A stretch of DNA of 64,000 nt from Adineta vaga (GCA_021613535.1 CP075496.1:3658001-3722000); one strand, 5' to 3'. Counted from the stretch's first letter, positions 6,859-18,879 are shown. Numbers and translations: made by a program. The notes: a model not told the origin generated them from the letters alone.

Positions 6859-8611
6859 ATGACAGGATGTTTCGGATATATCTTTTTACTGATCATTTGT
6901 GTCAGTGTATATTGTGAACATGATGAAACACCTAAGACACATGTTGGTAAGTATGATGCGAATTGAACGCATTGAATGTGTATTATGGTTGTTTTATGAT
7001 TTAGCAATTATTGGAGCAGGTATTGGAGGTGTATCAACAGCATATTGGTTGAAACATTATTTGAATCATTCAGTTGCAATTACAATTTATGAATCCAATC
7101 AAGTTTGTTACATATTTTTTGTTAGTTTTGTTATGCTTTTGAGTTTTAGATTGGTGGTCGATTAAAAACGGTGAATATTGATGGAAATGAATATGAAGCT
7201 GGTGGATCTATATTACATGAGAAGAATTTATATATGAAACGATTTACTGATGAATTAGGTAAGATAATGTTTTTCGATGAAATTCTCTAAATAAAATTCG
7301 AAATATCTTTGTATTTAGGTTTAAAACGATTGAATGTTCCAAGTTCAACTTCGTATTTAACAACTAATGATGGTTCTCAAACATTATTTTCTACTCTATC
7401 ACGTTACATTCCTAATCTCTTTCTTATCTTATGGCGTTATGGATTTGATGCAGTACGTTTAAAATTTTGGCTTGGAAGAAAATTATCAAATTTTGTTCGG
7501 TAAATTCTTTTGATTACCTTCGAACAGAAAGTTTATGAAAATAGTTTTCCTTTAGAATCTATGATTATCAAGATAATGGACGAACATTTCAAACTGTGGA
7601 CGAATTTTTCGAAATGCTTGATCAAGATTTTTCGAAATCAACTCGAGTGTCATTTCGAAAATATTTATCTGAAAAAGGTTTTCAAAAACGATTCATCGAT
7701 GAAATTGCTCAAATGGCTGCGTTAGTTAATTATGATCAATCCGTTGATTCCATGAATGCATTTCCAGGTAAATGAACATTTATATCGTTATATGTCTGAA
7801 TAAAATTATTCTAGGTCTTGTTTCTTTGATGGCTGCTGGTTCAACATTGTGGCATGTTAAAGGTGGTAATGTACTCGTACCAAAACAAATACTTGATCAT
7901 CTTTTAAAACAATCTGATGTTCAATACGTTAATGGTCATGTAAAAAGTGTTGCAGAAGTTCATCGTATTGATATTGATGATCAAGGTGGAAATGTTCGTC
8001 TTTCCTATCAACCAGCGAATAGTGAACTTGTTCATGCGGTTGATTATGATTATGTGATTATTGCTTTTCCACTTCACCGTGATAATACGAATAATTTTGT
8101 TTTACAATCAACGGATTTATTTAATCAATATGATTTCCGTATGCAATCGACACATGCAAATTTTCTTTCGGGAAAACTTGATTGTCAGATATATAATTTA
8201 ACTGATAGTGATTGTCAACGATTAAATGCAGTATTTTATACGAATCCATCCTTACCATATCGATCTGTTGCTCAACAACAAAGTGTCAATGAAAATGACG
8301 GGAAATATTCGAAATCTGTTTATAAAGTGTTTTCACCAGAAAAACTATCTTCTTCTGATTATAAACGAATATTTGAAAACGAAAACTTTCGATTGATAGA
8401 AGATATACCCTGGTTAGCTTATCCAAAATATGAATATCCACAAAAATTACCACCTATTGAAATTAATTCAAATATTTTTTATGTTAATGCTATGGAATGG
8501 AGTGCATCATGTATGGAAATTGAAGCGATTAGTGCACGAAATATTGCTATGCTTGTTACGAAAAAACTTGGAGTTCAACTCAAACGAAGTGATAAACATG
8601 TCGAATTTTAA
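6859..8611 (+). CDS. PCYOX1: Prenylcysteine oxidase-like FAD-dependent oxidoreductase with signal peptide
   Basis: Signal peptide MTGCFGYIFLLIICVSVYC; Rossmann motif AIIGAGIGG; YEAGGSILHEKN; WLAYPKY; FYVNAMEWSASCMEIEAISARNIA; C-terminal HVEF may be a KDEL-like signal. Confidence 0.88.
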
Positions 8612-8709
8612 TATGTCTCTTTCTTTTCTTTTTTATAAAAAAAATTTATCTTTACATTAAGTGATCAACTATATTCCTTCCAACCTTTTGTTTTTCAGAT
8701 AAATAAACC

Positions 8710-9965
8710 ATGGATTCTGAACCGAGAAAAACTGTTGATAATACATCGAGTTCTTATCTATCATTAAAAGCTGAATTATTACGGAAGAAACAAGATGTTC
8801 AACGTGCATCGTCATCTGCGACTTCGTCATCGGCGATACTCGAGAATTTACAATCAACATCGACTTCATTGAAATTAAAAACGAAAGCTGAATTGGATGT
8901 TGAAGTAGCAAATCCATCCAAAAAGAAAAAGAAAAATGATAGAGTGTCATCTTCTTCACCTGCTCCACCGCCAACATCCTCTGCAACTTTATCACGTGAA
9001 GATGAGGTTGCATTTGCTAAATCACGAGCTATTCTCGAAGCAAAATCAAAATTATACGATGAAATTATGTCAAATAATGAAATGAAACTATTAGCTGAAG
9101 ATGATTACAATGATGATGATGATGATAAATCATTTCTCGTTGATTTTGAACGAAAAATCTACGATACAAATCAAACAAAAAAGCAAATCGAATATACGGA
9201 TTCTTTCGGACGTACACGTTTAGTTACTCCCGATGAATATGAACAGTTACAAGTAACAAACAAGAAAAACTTTCGTGAAGAAACTCCACCAAGGAATACA
9301 TCCGAAGATGAAATTCGTCGTGTCGAACGTATACATCGTGAACAAATGCGTAGTAAATGGGAATCTGATATGGAAGCTTTGAGAAATAAAACAGATGTTC
9401 ATTATGAAGATATTTTATTCGATGAAAAACGTGAACATGGTCTTGGTTATTATAAATTTTCTACGGATGATAAACAACGTGAAGAACAAATGGCTACATT
9501 GAATGAATTGAGAGCGAATACAAAAACAGAACAAAAGAAATTTATGCAAGAAAAAGAAAAACGACAATCAAATATGGCTGAACGATTGAATAAAATACGA
9601 TTGAGAAAAGCCAAAGAAATGGGTATTGATTTAACAGAAAATACAACGATATCAGATCAATCACAAAATAAAGTAAGACTAAAGATTAATAGAAGTATTA
9701 AGTTTCATGCGTATTTGTTGAAGGAATCATCACATATTACAAAGGATGAAAAAGAAACAACAACAGATTCATCGATAGTGATAGAAACATTACAATCCCA
9801 ACAAGTTCGTTTTTTTTTCTGTCTATACATATGTTTTGTATGCTTTCTCTTTTATATTCCTAGAAAGTACAATCAATTCCTACTCAACAACAACCATCAG
9901 TACAAAATAATACCTCATCATCCATGGCCTATCCATTTCCTGTAATGCGGACTAATCATCTATGA
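8710..9965 (+). CDS. CCDC174: Coiled-coil domain-containing protein 174 homolog (introns ~9673-9723 and ~9805-9862)
   Basis: SSYLSLKAELLRKKQD, LEAKSKLYD, FLVDF, IEYTDSFGRTR and VHYEDILFDEKREHGLGYYKFS..REEQMATLNELR follow the CCDC174 motif order. Confidence 0.85.
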
Positions 9966-10251: not shown

Positions 10252-10748
10252 TTATTTTTTGCCAGTGGCTGAATTGAAGGCTTGATTCCATGCTGGCCAT
10301 GTTGCAAGATCTGGACAGTATCGTGGATGAAGAAGACGTTCGCATTTTTCTTCGTATCTTAAATAAATAGAAATAGATTTGAGAGTTTGTTTTATTATTT
10401 TCAAAAACTATTACTTCTTCTTGGCTTCTTTCATGTGACTTTTTTGATCAGAGAATAATCGACTTGATCGATCAAGAAATTCACTAGCATCTTCTTCATT
10501 TTCCAAGAAATCACGAATAGCACGTTTTTCACCTAAAAATCATATTATAGAAGAAGAATAACAATTCATATATTCTTACTACGTAAACCGGTATTGTCAT
10601 TGGTATATTCTTCATTTGTATTGTCATCATTGTCATCATTGTCATCGGCATCTTCTCCATTACTACGTTTAGTTAATCGTCCACATTGAGCCAAGGTGAT
10701 CAATAAACCAAAAGTAAGTAAAAGAACTGAAAGATATTTTGTATTCAT
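10252..10748 (-). CDS. Small secreted prepropeptide A, 130 aa, 3 exons (10748-10580, 10532-10415, 10357-10252); candidate Gla-type peptide
   Basis: Canonical GT-AG introns give MNTKYLSVLLLTFGLLITLAQCGRLTKRSNGEDADDNDDNDDNTNEEYTNDNTGLRSEKRAIRDFLENEEDASEFLDRSSRLFSDQKSHMKEAKKKYEEKCERLLHPRYCPDLATWPAWNQAFNSATGKK*. It has a signal peptide, an acidic spacer, KR and RxxR sites and a terminal GKK. The paralog at 11697 supports the model. Confidence 0.85.
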
Positions 10749-11696
10749 CTTCGTTTTTTGTCAATAAATCTACATGATATTCTATGTAAATGATATGAAT
10801 TTTGAAACTATAACACTTACCTTCAATGTTTTCTTTCGTTAAATATGAATAGGTCGAATATAAAATATATATGTTTAAGACTTTGGCTTTTATATCCAGA
10901 TGTGATTTGATTTCTCTCTCTTGCTCTCCGCCTCGTTTTTCTTTACATATACGATATCGCTTATTTTGATTGTGCATATAACGAAAAAAACATAAGTCGT
11001 ACTTGAAAAAGATCAATATAGCCAGGTAATGCTGGTATCAGGTATGATTAATGATTTTCTTTCTCTTAAATGTCTGTCCATAATCTTTTATCTTCACATA
11101 AAAAAAATATTTCTGTTCGACTAGCACCATTAAACTAAATAACGATGAATAAATGTATGTTTTTCGATTATTCATCGTTGAGAGCGAAAATCTTATGAAG
11201 TAATTGTAGAAATATCAAATATTATTCGTTACATAAACATACCCCTGGATGACAAAAAAAACTGAGTAATATTGACAAATTGTATTATGCTATTATATAG
11301 AAAAAAAGAACTATAAGATTTCATTAAATGAAAGCTTTTGAATTTTAATCGATAGCTTTAAATATTATTCTCGTCTTATCAGATATTTATTCAACATAAA
11401 CATATTATTCATACCTATACTTTTTTTAAAGCCGTATCAGAATCACTAGACTACCATGTTAGATTGTAGATCTTTCAGATGCAAAGAGCTTGATGCAATC
11501 GTTAATAATTTCTTAATTGATCCGAATAACTATTCATACAAAGTGCTTTCTTTGATTGCTCGAAGCATATACATGTCGTTGAATATATACAATATGAATA
11601 GAATATCAGATTTTATATGTGAAGCATCCTCATATATAAATTGCTTATCATCGTAGTTCTTCTTTCAAAAGTCATTTCTAAATCGAAGGAATAAGT

Positions 11697-12108
11697 ATGA
11701 AGCAATTCGTTTTGATTTGTGCTATCATTGTCATTCTTGATACAACAATTTTGGCAAGACCAGAAAGTAGTACTGATGATTTCGATATGGGTAAGAAAAA
11801 AGAAAGTTGACCGTGTATTATCTTTCCTCGTTCAATTGAATATTCCATTTAGATCATGAGATGGCAACAAAGTTTTTGAAACGAACATTTTTTCATCCAG
11901 GAAAGACTAGATGCGAAGAGCAAAAACGAGAAGCATCAGAAAAATATGAAGAACGTTGTGAGCCCAGTGTTAATAAATTAACTGGATCACGTTATTGTAA
12001 GATACATTCGATAAAGTTTCTTTTTCATATTTTTCAAATACAGGTCCTGATATTCAAAGATGGGAAGCATTTAAGAATTATGAAGTTGGCGGTGGCTATG
12101 GTCGTTAG
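11697..12108 (+). CDS. Small secreted prepropeptide B, 100 aa, 3 exons (11697-11790, 11853-11996, 12044-12108); paralog of A
   Basis: Spliced product MKQFVLICAIIVILDTTILARPESSTDDFDMDHEMATKFLKRTFFHPGKTRCEEQKREASEKYEERCEPSVNKLTGSRYCPDIQRWEAFKNYEVGGGYGR*. TATATAAA at ~11633 and AATAAA at ~12168 flank it. Confidence 0.85.
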
Positions 12109-12375: not shown

Positions 12376-13281
12376 TCATGAAACTCTCACTAACTTATGA
12401 CACGTTTTGTGTTCCCAACTATCTTCTATGTAGACAGCAGCTTCGATACTGATTGCCAAACGAATAGTTTCTCGTGGCGACAGTCTTGTATGAGAACATA
12501 TCGAAATCCATTGATGTTCGGATATGGAATATTCAATGGCCACAAACGTAATATTCCTACCAGACCAGTTGTTAAAGTGATTAGTAATAGAAAATCCCAT
12601 AGAACTTCTGCTATTCATCTATGAGAAACAATAAAATGAGTTTAATAATAGACTTTTATAATCTCGCTATATATGTATGACATCTTCAATAAAGAAACAG
12701 TTTTCGAAGTTGAGCGATTGGCATTTCGGACGAACATGTGTGTCGGGCATGAGGATGATTTCTTGTTCATCTGGAAATGTTGAAAATGCTGAAATGTCTT
12801 TACCATGAAGTGCATCGATAGCAAATATGGTACCCGTTGTATCTAAATACTTTTCAACTACCCTAAGATCTTTAGAACAAGAATTCACGCTCCACCAGAA
12901 ACACCTCGCCAAATAGTTTTATTCCTTGACGGTAATTTCTCGAGAACATTTATGAATAGTTTTAAGAAGGTAAACCATGATTTCAATGCATGTTGATTTC
13001 CATCTCGAAGAGCTTCGTTGAGACGACCAAAGAAAGGTACTGGCATTGAGTAAAGATATATTGTTGCTGACCAATTCATCTCTTATTAACAAAGTGAACT
13101 GTTGATTAAATTCATTTTTAGCTATGAACACAAAATTCATCACTTGAGAAACAAGTAAAACTAGTTTTTCTACAGCTTTTTCTTAGCGTCAATATGGGTA
13201 AGTCTTCATAACCAGATATTGGATTGCGATTAGCATCTTGAAGTTCTGAAAGAGTCTGTATACAAAACAATGATTCTCCAT
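12376..13281 (-). pseudogene. Frameshifted ADP-ribosyltransferase (ART) gene, paralog of the 17176 gene
   Basis: Fragments in different frames: SATIYLYSM..FFGRLNEALRDGNQHALKSWFTFLKLFINVLEKLPS..TIWRGV, then FWWSVNSCSKD..GTIFAIDALHGKDISAFSTFPDEQEIILMP; collinear with the intact ART domain. Confidence 0.8.
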
Positions 13282-14184
13282 AATTGTAATTTATAGTTAT
13301 TATATTGATTACAATGCATGTTGATTACACATTTACTTCTAGAAGAAAATTAGTTGAGATAAATTATGAGATTTAAATCACATTTGAGATCGCCATTATC
13401 TTCTCTATATTCTTCATAAGCAGTAGTGAACTCGAGCTCAAGTCATCGGTTATTTTTTCATCGTACAGAACTATCATTTTTATACGAATAAAATTCACTC
13501 TGATAATTCTATCATCAATGTATTTATCTTCATATCTTGTTTTTATTGAGAAGTGCACAAAAAGCCAAGTAAAAGATGCGTTTAAATATCAATGGAGTAT
13601 CCATACGGAAAATAGACAGGTATCAAGAGAAAGAATGACTATGGAAGAAAGAATCGTATTAGTTAGAATAAGATAACTTCTACTAAAAAAAAATGATATT
13701 ATTCAATTATTCACTTTTCTCTCGCTCTCTCTCTAGTTTCCCAATAGAATAAATAATTTGTAAATTTTCGGAGTATACATTAATCTTTTTTGTGATAAAA
13801 TAATTCATAACGTTACATGTATATATAGTTCAAAAAAAGTATAATCAACAATTTAGTTTCATCCAAATGATACGATTTACTTCATGAGTATATATAAATG
13901 ATATCGGATCCAACGGAAGAAAAACAACAGAGGATTGGTATATGTTTACTGCCTATCACATGTATGCAAGTATAGATTACATTTGACGTCTTGTTTTTGC
14001 AATTCGATAGAGGTAAGCATGGGTGTGGAACACAGCATGTAGTCTTCGTTTCGTTGGTCTATTTGATTTTCTCAGTGTTATTATAATGCTTTCCATCTCT
14101 AATCACACATATGTACAGTCGTACAATTTGGATATTCCTTTCATCTTGAAGATGATAATGTGACAGTGAATGAATAGCAGACAT

Positions 14185-14485
14185 ACACATTCTCATCGAA
14201 AACATCTACTGCTGTAGTCTGATAATAGACAAACATGGATTTCGTTATGTTGAACCTGAGAAGAAGCATGAAGTGAAACGATGGAAAAGAAAAACAAGGA
14301 ACGATCGTGGCTGGAGGAAATGATGAAGGTGACCAAATGATTTATCTATCTTGTAACATTGTTGATGACGAACAATCGATTTATGTTTCCGGTCGTTTAA
14401 ATCAGCATGTGATGTAATGGAGGAAAAAAGCTCGAGAAGGAAATGAATTGAATTGTAAGCTCTGATTCAGTTCGCAAATAAAAAT
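14185..14485 (+). pseudogene. Decayed NHL-repeat fragment
   Basis: Nucleotide similarity to 18325-18590 (aagcatgaagtga.acgatggaaa, gtggctggaggaaatgatgaaggtga, gaacaatcgatttatgt, aaaaaagctcgagaagg) with stops and indels. Confidence 0.8.
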
Positions 14486-14701
14486 CATCTTTATCTATTT
14501 ATCTTCTATAGGAAAACAAAGATTTTGTTTTTAAGAAACATATATTTAAAAGAATTAAAAATCTCTGAAAATGACAAAAAATGAAATAATTTCGAGAAAA
14601 GAATATTTTATTGAAAAGATACAAATGAATAAATCTCACTTACATCTAGATCATCATTAATTTGTTTTGAAAAACAGATAACTGTTTTATTAAAAGAAAT
14701 T

Positions 14702-15592
14702 TTATGAATTATAAGGCAATAAACCTTTTTCCTGCATTAGTTTCATCATCATTTGAATATCTTCCGTTTGTTTTTCGAGTGTTTCTTGTAATTGTTTAAT
14801 AATTGCATCTTGAATTTGTGTCTGTTGATCTTGTTTTTCAATAATACTTTCAAGTTGATGAATTGTCTCATTTTTCTCTTCGATTTCTTGTTCTTTCTTT
14901 TGTAGATTTGTTTTCAATTGAGTTATTTCATTTTGTATATCTGTTAAATCCGATTTCGATGATTGACTATTTGAATATGCTTGTTTTCGTTCAATGAGAA
15001 GTTCAAGTTTCTTCTTTTCACCATATGTAATCGAAAACTTTTGATAATCATTTTCATTAAAATTAACTAAATCAAAACCAGAAACACGTTCATTTTTCAA
15101 TTTATCTGCCAATGAATATAAGGTTGGATCAATTCGTAATAAATAATCGTACAATTCATCGACAGAAAATTTGTCAAGTGTTTTTGTTGAAGGTAAAGAT
15201 GCTTTGGCTTGAATATTATTAACGGATATATTCGAGAGAAATTCTATAATAACAAAAAAACAACATTATGCTTCTTATTCGTTTCCTATTTACTTGACAA
15301 ATATGATTCTCCAAGATTATTCATTTGACCAGTGTGTTGTTCTGTAAGTAAATTTGGATCCACTGATGGTGGTGGGTTGATCTGTAACATTAAATGGGAA
15401 TATAAATGATTGGAAGTCTGCTTCTTATTATTGTAACACATCAGGCATAAGTTATAATTTGGACATATTTGACATTTATAACGGTAATCGGAAAATTCAA
15501 ATGCATTACAACCATCACAACGAATACCTGGAAGAAAATGTATTTTTCTACTAAAATAAAAACTAATAAATCTTACCTATGTGTTTAGACAT
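14702..15592 (-). CDS. ZZ-type zinc finger + SAM-like domain + coiled-coil protein, 3 exons
   Basis: MSKHI|GIRCDGCNAFEFSDYRYKCQICPNYNLCLMCYNNKKQTSNHLYSHLML is a ZZ finger. FSVDELYDYL..LADKLKNERVSGFDLVNFNENDYQKFSITYGEKKKL is SAM-like. The tail is a Q/E/K heptad coiled coil. Confidence 0.8.
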
Positions 15593-16407
15593 TATGCTCT
15601 AATTTGAGTAAAAATATGAAACTATAATCTAAAATAAAAAAAAGACACTCAGAAAATTCGTCTTATTTTATGATGAATAATACAAAACAGATTGTAATGC
15701 ACTGAAATACTATGCAACGACAAACGCCATTTTATTTCATTATATATTCATCGTTTATATATTTTGTTCTATACAAAAACATGTTCGTCATCGAGAAAGA
15801 AAAAATACAAAACTATTGACGCATTGTTTTACTAAGGAAAGGAAAAAGAACAGTTACCTTGAAATGTGAGTGTGTGTATCATCCGTTTATCCACACTCTC
15901 ACCTTTCATAATCCTTCCTGTATTTTCTATTCATGTGACTGCTTTTTGCCTGTGGGAAATCAATCAACATGGATGAAGGAAAGTCTAGCATTGGTTGAAA
16001 AATCGATTACGAGAAAATGTTGTCTCTTCTGTGCCATAACTTTTGAGGAAATAGAAAGAAATGTGTGACATCTGTTGCTTTTATGATTGAGTGTAGTGAA
16101 AACAAGTTACAACTAATTTGCTTGAAAAATTTGTCGTCGTATCTCTCCTATTCGATTAAATTCCAAAAAGCCTAAAGTCGTTAAGGCTATAGAAAGTTAT
16201 TTGAGAAATATATCTTACCCATCCATACTCTCGAAGAATAAAATCTCGTATTTGTACCTAAAAATGAATAAAAACGAATAATATTCTTGTCATTTCATTT
16301 CATCTAAATCTTCTGATGATTTTTCATTTTAGTCGTACAGGTTTTGATATAGATATTTTCTGAGATGTCCTTTCTCGTATATTCTTTTTATCAATAGTTG
16401 AAATTCA

Positions 16408-16879
16408 ATGATAAATAGACTTGTCACAAATGGAAATGACGAAGAATCGAAATTAAACCAGTTGATTTATCCAACAGATATGATTATTGATCAAGAAAAT
16501 CGAAGAGTGATTCGTTGTAAAGACCAAAAGCAATGTATTATTATTACTGTAGATATTGACTATCAAGGTCTTGCATTGGATAAAAACCGATTTCTCTATG
16601 TTTTCAATATGCAGAAGTATGAAATGAGAAAATGAAAAATTGAAGAAAAAGGATACGAATTTTAACCTGATCATATTAGTTATCTTCGATTACTCTTTCG
16701 GATTTAGAAAATCATCGTGTCGTGAAATGGAAACAAGATGCTAAAGAAGGAATTGGTTATGGAAAGAATCCTCATTAATTGTCTCGTTCCACGGGTTTAT
16801 CATTTAATAATGAAGGAAACCTTTATATTGTTGATAAATAAAACGATTGAGTACTAAGATTTGATTTAATCTCTGAATG
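16408..16879 (+). pseudogene. Decayed NHL-repeat gene fragment
   Basis: LNQLIYPTDMIIDQ..RRVIR..IDYQGLALDKNRFLYV, then a stop and frameshifted remains ending tttgatttaatctctgaatga, like the intact gene's end (FDLICE*). Confidence 0.8.
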
Positions 16880-17175
16880 AGGATGTGTCTTTCTACTTTT
16901 CTTTTATAAAAATTTTATTTAATTGAATAAATGAAGAGAAAACATCATTATTTTGTTCTTTTCTCTTTTTCTTTCAAAACATTTATTCCCTATTTTTCTA
17001 AAGACTTGAAGATGTTGAGGTATGTGTTTATAATAAATACAAAGTAATTGTATGGAAAAGAAAACTAATGAAGAAAAAATGAAACGAAACAGGAAATTAG
17101 AAAAAATATTAATAACAACAAAATTTAAAGAAAAGAAAGGATGCGATTCTTTTTCTTTAATTCAAAGTTATTGTT

Positions 17176-18879
17176 ATGTCTGAGCGAATTATTCTTGAAC
17201 GATTTCTTGATGCTGACCAAGAACCAAATCAATCATTAACACCCATCAAAGGCTATGAAACTTATCCACTTGTTTCATTAAAAGAAGCCATTGAGCCAGT
17301 CAAACAATTACTTTATGATTTCGATACAATGGTTGCAATTGCAAAAAGAAATTGTAAGAAACCTAAAGATGGTTTAACACAAGATGAATCTGCTTCGATT
17401 CATTTATATACAATGCAATGGCCCCATCCTCATTCAAGTCTATTTACTCTACTAAATGAAAAACTTCGATCAAAAAATCGAAATGTTTTAACAACATGGT
17501 TTCTCTTTCTTAAACTTTTCTTCACTGCTTTATATAAACTACCATCAATGAAGCGTGTTATCTATCGTGGTGTTTGTGGAAATTTAAGTGACGAATATGA
17601 TGAAGATCATTTCTGGTGGGGAATGAGTTCATGTACTGAAACAATGAATATTATGGAAACATTTATTGGAACTGATGGTGATCGAACTATTTTTAACATT
17701 GAATGTTTAAATGGAAAATCAATTCAATCACATTCGTATTTTCAAAATGAAAATGAAATTCTTCTTCTTCCCGGAACTTATTTTCAAGTTGTTAGTAAAT
17801 GGAAAGCAGCAAAAGGATTATTTATTATTCATCTGAGAGAAAAAATTCCACCGTATCAAACATTGACATCCCCTTTTGATGTTGCTTTGTCGTCAAGAAA
17901 ATCTCTATCAAATCGTCAAATATCATCATCGAAGCTTTTGAGTAAGTCTTTTTTTTTTCGTTCACAAAAATTCAAACATTTCTTTACTTTACTTTTAGAA
18001 ATAATATTCAAACAATATGCAAAGATTGTTGCGGGTGGAAATGGAAAAGGAAAGAGATTAAATCAACTAGATTGTCCTGAAGGAATTTTTATTGATGAAA
18101 ACAAACATATTTATATTGCTGACTGGAGAAATGATCGTATTGTAGAATGGAAATCAAATGAAAAACAAGGACAGATCATTGCAGGTGGGAATGGAAACGG
18201 AGAGAGAATAGATCAATTGAATTATCCAACAGATGTGATTGTTGATCAACAAAATTATTCGATCGTCATTGCTGATCGAGATAATAGACGAGTGATTCGA
18301 TGGAAAGAACAAAAACAAGAAATCCTTATTGAAGATATCGATTGTTGGAGTTTGACAATGGATACAAAGGGATTTCTTTATGTTTCCGATGTGGAAAAGC
18401 ATGAAGTGAGACGATGGAAAACTGGAAAAGAAAAAGAAGGAACATTGGTGGCTGGAGGAAATGATGAAGGTGATCAACTGAATTATCCATCTTGTATCTT
18501 TGTTGATGATGAACAATCGATTTATGTATCTGATAATACGAATCATTGTGTGATAAAATGGAGAAAAAAAGCTCGAGAAGGAATTACTGTAGCTGGAGGA
18601 AATGGTTATGGAAAGAATCCTAATCAATTGTCTAATCCTGGAGGAGTGATTATTGATCATTTTGGTCAAGTGTATGTGGCCGATTGTGATAATCATCGAG
18701 TAATGCGTTGGTGTGAAGGTGATAGAGAAGGTGAAGTTGTCGTTGGTGGAAATGGTCAAGGAAATGAATTGAATCAATTATTTTGTCCTCGTGGCTTATC
18801 ATTTGATAATGAAGGAAATCTTTATGTTGGTGATAGTGGAAATCATCGAATTTTAAGATTCGATTTGATTTGTGAATAA
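17176..18879 (+). CDS. R-S-E class mono-ADP-ribosyltransferase domain fused to an NHL-repeat beta-propeller (probable 57-nt intron 17942-17998)
   Basis: ART motifs VIYRG, WWGMSSCT and QNENEILL; about six repeats of VAGGNGxG..LNQL..P.GI..D....YVAD..NHRV. Confidence 0.9.
   Translation: MSERIILERFLDADQEPNQSLTPIKGYETYPLVSLKEAIEPVKQLLYDFDTMVAIAKRNCKKPKDGLTQDESASIHLYTMQWPHPHSSLFTLLNEKLRSKNRNVLTTWFLFLKLFFTALYKLPSMKRVIYRGVCGNLSDEYDEDHFWWGMSSCTETMNIMETFIGTDGDRTIFNIECLNGKSIQSHSYFQNENEILLLPGTYFQVVSKWKAAKGLFIIHLREKIPPYQTLTSPFDVALSSRKSLSNRQISSSKLLSKSFFFRSQKFKHFFTLLLEIIFKQYAKIVAGGNGKGKRLNQLDCPEGIFIDENKHIYIADWRNDRIVEWKSNEKQGQIIAGGNGNGERIDQLNYPTDVIVDQQNYSIVIADRDNRRVIRWKEQKQEILIEDIDCWSLTMDTKGFLYVSDVEKHEVRRWKTGKEKEGTLVAGGNDEGDQLNYPSCIFVDDEQSIYVSDNTNHCVIKWRKKAREGITVAGGNGYGKNPNQLSNPGGVIIDHFGQVYVADCDNHRVMRWCEGDREGEVVVGGNGQGNELNQLFCPRGLSFDNEGNLYVGDSGNHRILRFDLICE

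Follow-up and report, generated by a model that had tools for sequence, protein, structure and literature searches.

The window analysed here, a 64,000-nucleotide stretch of Adineta vaga DNA (GCA_021613535.1 CP075496.1:3658001-3722000), contains two small genes that are transcribed away from each other. Gene A, on the minus strand, encodes a product of 130 aa, and gene B, on the plus strand, one of 100 aa (Table 1). Both gene models come from an enumeration of GT-AG pairs, and their coordinates and deduced peptides agree with those of a first-pass annotation of this DNA. The A. vaga hypothetical proteins I4U23_018240 (P0042) and I4U23_018241 (P0003) match products A and B as printed. The window DNA is AT-rich and eukaryotic, and its introns are short.

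A and B are real, spliced genes. All four coding introns are skipped in Logan contigs from RNA-like runs, the two of A in X1 and X8 and the two of B in X1, X5 and X8, and the DNA-like run X13 has no exon joint; the RNA-like status of these runs is a guess of the tool. Splicing, which the first-pass annotation had proposed to check with RNA reads, is borne out in this way. Its description of two divergent three-exon genes holds for the head-to-head orientation and the coding introns, but A has an additional intron in its 5'UTR, seen in run X8, and therefore has at least four exons. The middle of the A-B intergenic region is without cover by RNA-like contigs. A conserved non-coding element in this region is matched at 19 to 30 of its 32 bases in five related A-B loci, against a chance level of 17-20 of 32 bases at six unrelated loci; by count alone it is clearly above chance only in L007 (30) and L014 (26).

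Table 1. Features of the A-B locus, with positions counted from the first letter of the window
Feature	Position	Strand	Content and basis
Gene A 5'UTR intron	10770..10820	-	Ends approximate; seen in one run only (X8)
Gene A coding exon 1	10580..10748	-	Signal peptide (predicted, about aa 1-21) followed by an acidic spacer; exon joint in RNA-like contigs
Gene A coding exon 2	10415..10532	-	KR site, pro-helix, RSSR cleavage site, start of mature helix; contig joints
Gene A candidate GGCX recognition segment	10459..10509	-	F65 (-17) to R81, with A72 (-10), F75 (-7) and L76 (-6); putative function
Gene A coding exon 3	10252..10357	-	YEEKCE, RYCPD, both conserved Cys, G-K-K amidation signal, stop
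Region between the A and B start codons	10749..11696		948 bp; 5'UTRs and a likely shared bidirectional promoter (putative role)
Conserved non-coding element	11016..11047	+	Core AGGTA-n-RCTGRYA(T/C)CA; intergenic in 5/5 related A-B loci
Gene B coding exon 1	11697..11790	+	Signal peptide (predicted, aa 1-20), a short spacer of acidic character and F29 (-17); the exon closes with a phase-1 donor at propeptide position -14
Gene B coding exon 2	11853..11996	+	A36 (-10), F39, L40, KR site, Cys52, Glu-striped helix E53-E68, Cys67
Gene B coding exon 3	12044..12108	+	Remainder of Cys80, PD-x3-W, G-R amidation signal, stop

Predicted precursors and their processing signals

The predicted layout of the precursors is a signal peptide, a pro-helix, a basic cleavage site, a Glu-striped helix and two invariant Cys, with an amidation signal at the C-terminus. 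In pairwise alignment the paralogues A and B are 36% identical over 77 columns (E 5e-11), and the motifs that the first-pass annotation had described, F-x6-A-x2-F-L-x-R and EA-x2-KYEE-x-CE-x5/9-RYCPD-x3-W-x-A, are literally present in the products. An N-terminal hydrophobic stretch, judged by eye and with a hydropathy rule, is found in A, B and the full-length homologues, as expected of proteins that enter the secretory pathway. The Cys pair is C101-C110 in A, with a C-x8-C loop, and C67-C80 in B, with a C-x12-C loop.

Both A and B end in a Gly-basic amidation signal that is absent from the earlier account. Among the complete sequences checked, amidation-type ends were seen in every A-type one (16 of 16) and every B-type one (13 of 13); of the other complete members, 7 of 12 have G or G-[KR]1-3 at the C-terminus. 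Having a signal peptide, a basic cleavage site and a C-terminal G-[KR], the precursors carry the features from which processing as amidated prohormones is predicted. The first-pass annotation had set gamma-carboxylated (Gla) peptides against neuropeptide or antimicrobial precursors as an either/or. That division is too sharp, because prohormone-type cleavage and amidation signals are present with or without carboxylation.

Family members in bdelloids and beyond

Searches and alignments place A and B in an unnamed, strongly conserved family that comprises two old subfamilies and extends to Acanthocephala. With B exon 2 as query, 38 of 38 candidates were 76-98% identical, the named ones coming from Adineta, Rotaria and Didymodactylos. 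The B-type alignment has 23 invariant positions, seven of them Glu; A has a separate orthologue set. Mean pairwise identity among 9 B orthologues is 43% in the signal, 34% in the spacer, 67% in the pro-segment and 92% in the mature part, and the corresponding values among 12 A orthologues are 61%, 41%, 68% and 88%. The pro-segment (67-68%) is thus better conserved than the signal (43-61%) or the spacer (34-41%), although it is predicted to be cleaved off.

A metagenome scan yielded 48 loci. The A-B head-to-head arrangement is present in L001, L002, L007, L013 and L014, and the pair, as read from these loci, recurs in other bdelloids; two upstream genes are common to L001 and L014. In A. ricciae, the records of A and of B come from contigs of equal length. 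Copies of B without a partner were found at L004-L006 and L011. In a second type of cluster, a 'GIPFP' paralogue lies head-to-head with tandem plus-strand modules.

When 1.84 billion representatives were searched with a profile, 92 matched at E<=0.001; two long repeat proteins were then removed from these. These false positives, P0095 and P0157, have 10 and 7 short repeats that match the R-x-C-x-D-x-x-T-W part only, resemble bacterial Excalibur-type repeats, and are excluded from all counts. The divergent matches include the acanthocephalan Pomphorhynchus laevis, with two modules, and the other divergent members are presumably monogonont rotifers. In a tree of 54 rows and 78 columns, several of whose 'bdelloid-type' rows were assigned by similarity, a B-type clade (91/98) contains both bdelloid-type and divergent rows and lies apart from the A-type rows. 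A clade made up of the 29 bdelloid-type rows, a group chosen after viewing the tree, is rejected by an AU test (p 0.011); long branches are present in the tree. Because the bdelloid-type rows are rejected as a clade and the B-type clade mixes both kinds, the A/B split probably predates bdelloids.

The A/B family is a real, new peptide family. A literature search with poor coverage of subscription journals returned, in the portions of text available, no description of the family, of a rotifer GGCX substrate or of C17orf67 as a Gla protein. The first-pass annotation had suggested an undescribed invertebrate family of gamma-carboxylated peptides; the conserved family stands, with no description found, but A and B miss the Phe-16 of the recognition site for gamma-glutamyl carboxylase (GGCX).

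The propeptide and the GGCX recognition rule

Structures of human GGCX define three propeptide sites: a hydrophobic patch at -17 to -15 in which Phe-16 is invariant (PRS1), Ala or Gly at -10 (PRS2), and hydrophobic residues at -7/-6 (PRS3), as given in the available parts of PMC13187478 and PMC12647623. The residues of human GGCX that PMC12647623 names as binding the propeptide are Y415, Y425, L426, V430 and F431. We set these sites beside a table of hand-listed precursors without obvious intron read-through, anchored on [AS]-x2-[FY]-[LFIM]. All modules have this site ahead of the core (B-type, 16 of 16; A-type, 13 of 13; divergent, 25 of 25); as the site is the anchor itself, these counts are no free test. 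The residues at PRS2 and PRS3 are A72/F75/L76 in A and A36/F39/L40 in B, and A-10/F-7/L-6 are invariant in alignment A5 and nearly fixed across the bdelloid-type modules.

At the unanchored positions, divergent modules have Phe-16 in 12 of 25 cases and hydrophobic residues at both -16 and -15 in 18 of 25; aligned in this way, the -16/-15 pattern of many divergent members is the vertebrate register. None of the 29 bdelloid-type modules has Phe-16, and 27 of them have Phe/Tyr-17. The A-type modules have F-17/L(M)-16 (13/13), and the B-type modules have F/Y-17 (14/16) and D, E or N at -16 (16/16). PRS1 accordingly lacks Phe-16 in both A (F-17, L-16, E-15) and B (F-17, D-16, M-15). A stricter propeptide pattern matches 16 of 25 proteins and 0.07% of 50,000 composition shuffles, an enrichment that counts as one event because the homologues are not independent. 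In the divergent set the spacing from -16 to -6 is mostly constant, and the distance from A-10 to the core Tyr ranges over 26-54 aa. A-x2-F-L ahead of a basic site is also a generic amphipathic helix.

The Glu-striped helix

The Glu residues E53/54/58/61/64/65/68 of B are invariant in 38 of 38 sequences of alignment A1 and form a Glu cluster of the kind expected of a Gla peptide. A keeps four of these seven core Glu and has lost three, with some Asp substitutions; position 61 is Lys in 12 of 62 core segments, and acanthocephalan modules have lost several core Glu. The E-x3-E-x-C motif that the first-pass annotation had assigned to B and not to A is literally present in B and absent from A, and the column in question is E in 47 of 62 segments. 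On a helix, E54, E58, E61, E65 and E68 of B fall within an 80-degree arc that points away from C52, A59, Y63 and C67. An AF2 model built with 65 sequences predicts a pro-helix and a Glu helix, with a block pLDDT of 82 over the core and the remainder ill-defined (mean 65.6); an earlier AF2 model had a pLDDT of 58.

Across the seven Glu columns of 62 distinct 18-residue core segments, extracted with a pattern that permitted Asp at only some columns, we counted 348 E and 5 D. Another helix position, the K62 column, has D 6 times and E once, and the CP[D/E] column has D 32 times and E 20 times (of 66). Helices favour Glu over Asp. Because helix propensity and the extraction pattern both favour E, the bias is supportive and not decisive.

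The evidence on the propeptide and the helix leaves the proposals of the first-pass annotation partly intact. In the register given for peptide A (A-10, L-6, R-4 and R-1, with F at -17), A-10, L-6 and F-17 are kept, but R-4 is Q in most orthologues. Across homologues, positions -10, -7 and -6 are fixed and the Glu residues mostly kept, but none of the bdelloid-type modules has Phe-16 and some Glu are lost. The idea of a GGCX propeptide gains from the fixed A-10/F-7/L-6, from F-16 in divergent relatives, from a sub-threshold UCMA match (below), from Glu residues that avoid Asp and from VKOR; against it stands the lack of the invariant Phe-16 in A and B.

Probable alternative cassettes at paralogous loci

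An AG acceptor lies exactly at propeptide position -14, in phase 1, in 76 of 84 modules from the loci and the window. Seven of the remaining modules belong to a subfamily with the acceptor apparently one codon earlier, and one is intronless there. All of the second or third tandem modules (22/22) have the -14 acceptor, and none shows a signal exon of its own to the detector used, which is imperfect and missed some first exons. At L030, one signal exon ending F-E-E stands ahead of three modules. A polyprotein reading of these tandem modules is ruled out, each having its own stop and acceptor. The gene models P0076, P0077, P0002 and P0017 chain modules.

At L047, A. vaga RNA-like contigs cover all three cassettes. 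Four of the seven contigs begin 29-30 bases 5' of the acceptor (for cassettes 1 and 3, which share their first base, the distance is 29, and for cassette 2 it is 30); the starts of the remaining three lie 28, 8 and 2 bases upstream of it. If a 31-mer de Bruijn graph is assumed, branching after a shared exon would give starts at 29-30 bases. Runs X10 and X12 gave no contig at L047. The records P0076 and P0080, each a transcript or a gene model, join a signal exon of the L030/L047 type to cassettes 2 and 3. These arrangements suggest, as indirect evidence, that paralogous loci likely splice one signal exon onto two or three alternative peptide cassettes. Gene B has the same exon boundary as the cassette loci, and a downstream cassette is present in some species (P0002, P0017, L012). 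B itself shows one cassette, and no further (third) cassette was detected downstream of it within the window.

Searches against known families and enzymes

When 42 members of alignment A7 were searched against 24,736 Pfam models, the best E-value was to UCMA, or Gla-rich protein (PF17085), with P0125 at 3.3e-4 (21.1 bits) and P0092 at 0.022 (15.2 bits); both scores are below the gathering cut-off of 27.6 bits, and 40 of the 42 members are unmatched. The match spans the signal, the pro region and the early mature part (model positions 14-81 of 134). In the Pfam scans neither A nor B matched UCMA, and no family came near its cut-off for A, B and their bdelloid homologues. The one strong Pfam match, to TspO, came from P0052, a fused gene model. 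The Pfam scans gave no match to the Gla domain PF00594, in two of them as judged among the matches listed (25 of 37 and 25 of 39 families), and Conotoxin matches (E 0.43-3.7) were non-significant and confined to signal and spacer.

The first-pass annotation had seen an osteocalcin/MGP-like core, including a C-terminal parallel to osteocalcin, and had suggested fold comparison with the Gla domain, osteocalcin and MGP. Searches of PDB sequences gave chance helical matches only (best E 0.024) and none to these three; with the model of mean pLDDT 65.6, Foldseek gave 0 matches at E<=0.001 and VIA-align a best Z of 3.8, none reaching 5. The combination of E-x3-E-x-C with the short disulfide loop of osteocalcin and MGP was not found, the loops being x8 and x12. 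The likeness is therefore one of resemblance only, and by the tests run the A/B family falls outside the Gla-domain, osteocalcin/MGP and UCMA families.

In the ESM Atlas, where scores below 0.9 are leads only, the top cluster for B (0.84) and for P0092 (0.83) was C17orf67/DUF4543 (PF15076); of 256 features, 134-137 were shared, and the two queries are treated as a single source. DUF4543 had no Pfam match among the matches listed. Triangle DREP, considered for its size and single disulfide, was set aside: compared by eye with supplement file 1 of PMC10501145, its motifs and layout differ, those of the two Brachionus ones included, and in the available parts of that source its mature peptide directly follows the signal peptide, starts with C-G-x-[NS]-P and has a C-terminal Cys. 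None of the families named in the available text of a rotifer neuropeptide survey, which used models of known families, fits A/B (bioRxiv 10.1101/2024.07.20.604414).

The first-pass annotation had proposed looking for GGCX and VKOR in the genome, and the VKOR half is borne out: the available part of the A. vaga annotation table has a VKOR row with read counts (FUN_003511, PMC12220480 supplement). There is no GGCX row among the rows listed from that table, an absence to which we give no weight, or in the available parts of the supplements of PMC10809525 and PMC11258130. Two down-regulated gene sets of Brachionus manjavacas are enriched for GO:0008488 (gamma-glutamyl carboxylase activity), annotated at a permissive cut-off, according to the available parts of PMC5333405.

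Discussion

The reading that we favour, and hold to be moderately probable, is that A and B are predicted secreted prepropeptides that GGCX gamma-carboxylates and that are then cleaved and amidated into short calcium-binding signalling peptides. Gene structure, splicing, family conservation and motif positions are observed, and each of the processing steps that follow is an inference. The signal peptide would take the precursor into the ER. GGCX would dock on the pro-helix through the aromatic residue at -17, Ala-10, Phe-7 and Leu-6 and would convert the Glu residues just downstream to Gla, all seven core positions in B and the four equivalents only in A. A convertase would cut at KR (B) or RSSR/RR (A), and a carboxypeptidase and PAM would produce the C-terminal amide. 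The two invariant Cys would close the loop in each peptide, and the extra C52 of B is perhaps free for dimerisation. Ca2+ stabilises the Gla helix in osteocalcin and in conantokins; bound along the stripe at positions 54, 58, 61, 65 and 68 on one helix face of B, it could stabilise this helix as well. The peptide of 46-56 aa may then act on a conserved receptor or membrane surface, a ligand role suggested because mature parts are 88-92% identical across the orthologues compared. The A/B family is, in short, a good candidate for endogenous invertebrate GGCX substrates.

Alternatively, A and B could belong to an ordinary family of unmodified amidated neuropeptides or hormones. The pro-helix would then be for sorting or folding and the Glu stripe for binding a receptor or forming salt bridges, and any similarity to a GGCX site would be chance. 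Signal peptides, dibasic sites, the uniform G-K/R ends and the highly conserved mature part all agree with this; several neuropeptide precursor clusters score 0.76-0.78 for B in the ESM Atlas, as leads only, and alternative last exons recall calcitonin/CGRP. We nevertheless think it rather unlikely, as it leaves unexplained why Phe or another hydrophobic residue at -16, a hydrophobic residue at -15, A-10, F-7 and L-6 should be kept at fixed spacing in a segment that is predicted to be cleaved off and lies at a variable distance from the mature part. The UCMA match would also go unexplained, and no known neuropeptide Pfam family was matched. The peptides might also be unmodified and serve as antimicrobials, in defence or as structural material of an adhesive, the cuticle or the egg. 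In favour of this, they are small, cationic-acidic, predicted to be secreted and amidated, and encoded by a multigene family with likely alternative cassettes. Defence peptides are fast-evolving, however, which does not suit the 88-92% identity of the mature regions across the orthologues compared, and the Pfam scans matched no AMP family; we judge this account highly improbable.

A third account accepts an ancestral GGCX substrate that is still one in other rotifers, and supposes that the bdelloid copies, A and B included, have drifted and are weakly or not carboxylated. The contrast at -16 between bdelloid-type and divergent modules, with Phe shifted to -17 and an acidic residue at -16, is what such drift would leave, as is the retention in A of four core Glu with some Asp substitutions. 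Yet the aromatic residue at -17 is held in nearly all bdelloid-type modules, A-10/F-7/L-6 are nearly fixed, VKOR is retained, and a co-evolved bdelloid GGCX would fit equally well, so that drift seems very unlikely to us.

We also consider, as an unlikely extension of the carboxylation reading, that these peptides form a protostome lineage of GGCX substrates, endogenous and non-venom, and are distant kin of GRP/UCMA, osteocalcin, MGP and C17orf67. If this were true, the module of propeptide plus Glu helix would be older than the protostome-deuterostome split, human C17orf67 would have gone unrecognised as a vitamin K-dependent protein, and in bdelloids several Gla peptides, made by alternative splicing, would draw the aromatic anchor of their recognition site from one exon.

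In the available parts of PMC5578492, GGCX and VKOR occur in invertebrates without a clotting cascade, and both are functional in flies, whose GGCX knockouts have no apparent phenotype. The A/B family likely carries the vitamin-K-dependent calcium-binding modification of clotting and bone proteins and would supply the missing natural substrates of invertebrate GGCX. Its peptides are concrete, small, synthesisable candidate substrates in culturable animals, and the natural contrast between F-16 (divergent) and F-17/acidic-16 (bdelloid) probes the flexibility of the GGCX recognition rule. Even without Gla, this is an unnamed, deeply conserved family of predicted amidated peptides of rotifers and acanthocephalans, with a likely splicing switch in the style of calcitonin/CGRP.

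Comparison with known systems

In the calcitonin/CGRP gene, alternative last exons yield different amidated, Cys-loop peptides. The paralogous rotifer loci are similar in organisation only, with one predicted signal/pro exon and alternative last exons for distinct amidated, Cys-loop peptides; the rotifer peptides have no sequence similarity to calcitonin/CGRP, and gene B of the window has a single cassette.

Osteocalcin and MGP are, like the rotifer family as we read it, small secreted vitamin K-dependent peptides with a propeptide, Glu at i/i+4/i+7 on one helix face and one disulfide. A closer likeness than that to the C-terminal segment of osteocalcin may be the one between E-Q-R-R-E-[AV] of the family consensus and the osteocalcin/MGP core E-x-x-R-E-x-C. 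Unlike that core, the rotifer family has no Cys after R-E-x, and its loops are those of A and B. Many divergent members follow the F-16/A-10/L-6 rule of coagulation-factor and PRRG/TMG Gla domains (PF00594), and B resembles Gla domains in its literal E-x3-E-x-C, but the rotifer proteins lack EGF, kringle, protease and transmembrane parts and have another Cys spacing. C17orf67 is a small secreted chordate protein of similar size.

Conantokins provide an invertebrate comparison, being secreted, carboxylated under the direction of a propeptide and C-terminally amidated, with a Ca2+-stabilised helix. The rotifer family is alike in its predicted secretion, amidation signal and propeptide; it is endogenous and highly conserved, whereas the gamma-carboxylated conopeptides evolve fast, belong to venom and use another recognition sequence. 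UCMA/GRP, according to the available parts of PMC8430550, is carboxylated via a GGCX propeptide and cleaved by furin. It shares with the rotifer precursors a signal peptide, a short spacer, a GGCX-type propeptide directly before a basic site and a small Glu-rich mature peptide; the rotifer peptides differ in their invariant Cys pair, their R-[YFW]-C-P motif, their amidation signals and their 4-7 candidate core Glu, compared with 14 Gla in GRP (PMC8430550, same parts). Our reading is that the A/B family may work like a small vitamin K-dependent peptide such as GRP or osteocalcin, with amidation like that of the conantokins.

Discussion

The divergently transcribed peptide genes A and B are separated by a conserved non-coding element that recurs in five related loci from the metagenome scan (see table). 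It is a candidate shared regulatory site of both genes. The upstream neighbours of the pair are syntenic in L001 and L014. Our homology check of related loci covered these upstream genes only. By eye, the downstream block has more NHL- and ART-like fragments near window 12400-16700.

Features of the A/B region and of related loci
Feature	Position	Context
Conserved non-coding element, core AGGTA-n-RCTGRYA(T/C)CA	window 11016-11047	between genes A and B
Counterparts of this element	L001:7210; L002:753; L007:582; L013:1404; L014:4958	between-gene region
Prenylcysteine lyase gene and CCDC174/DUF4078 gene	window 7772-9600	upstream neighbours
ORF with ART (ADP-ribosyltransferase) and NHL repeats	window 17161-18876	within downstream block 12380-18876
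B Cys52 codon	window 11912-11914	
One signal-peptide exon, then 2-3 tandem terminal peptide cassettes	L030:7800-9430; L047:1480-2900; L016, L024, L025, L029, L035, L038, L042, L046	

RNA-like contigs (Logan contigs with run type guessed as RNA), including loose contig ends at window 11879-11997, reveal expressed A. vaga paralogues outside the window: a second B copy, a 'GIPFP' gene, a K-A-Y-E-E-K-C-T subfamily and a three-cassette gene. Among divergent relatives, P0110 and P0113 are one A-type and one B-type member, each on a contig of 19,673 bases. These contigs are probably one and the same, in which case A-B linkage would predate bdelloids. Two records, P0149 and P0146, one of them the acanthocephalan homologue, carry two peptide modules per precursor, and the acanthocephalan modules have lost several conserved Glu. 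In two long repeat proteins, P0095 and P0157, the family-profile match is confined to an R-x-C-x-D-x-x-T-W stretch, and we regard them as chance matches rather than members; their repeats resemble bacterial Excalibur calcium-binding repeats.

The B-type peptides contain three Cys, of which A-type members lack the first (B Cys52). Several divergent B-type members have Asn in its place. This Cys may thus be free to form a disulfide-linked dimer.

In Brachionus, the genes whose expression falls between egg and neonate, and between early and late reproduction, are enriched for the GO term gamma-glutamyl carboxylase activity (PMC5333405, supplement file 2). This hints at a role for carboxylation in rotifer development or reproduction.

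Each cassette of the tandem loci has its own stop, and its acceptor is phase 1 and falls at propeptide position -14. We predict that these loci are alternatively spliced, and that the candidate recognition site for the carboxylase (GGCX) is thereby split, one part being encoded by the shared exon and the other by a variable one. In this predicted splicing pattern, the tandem-cassette loci are similar to calcitonin/CGRP.
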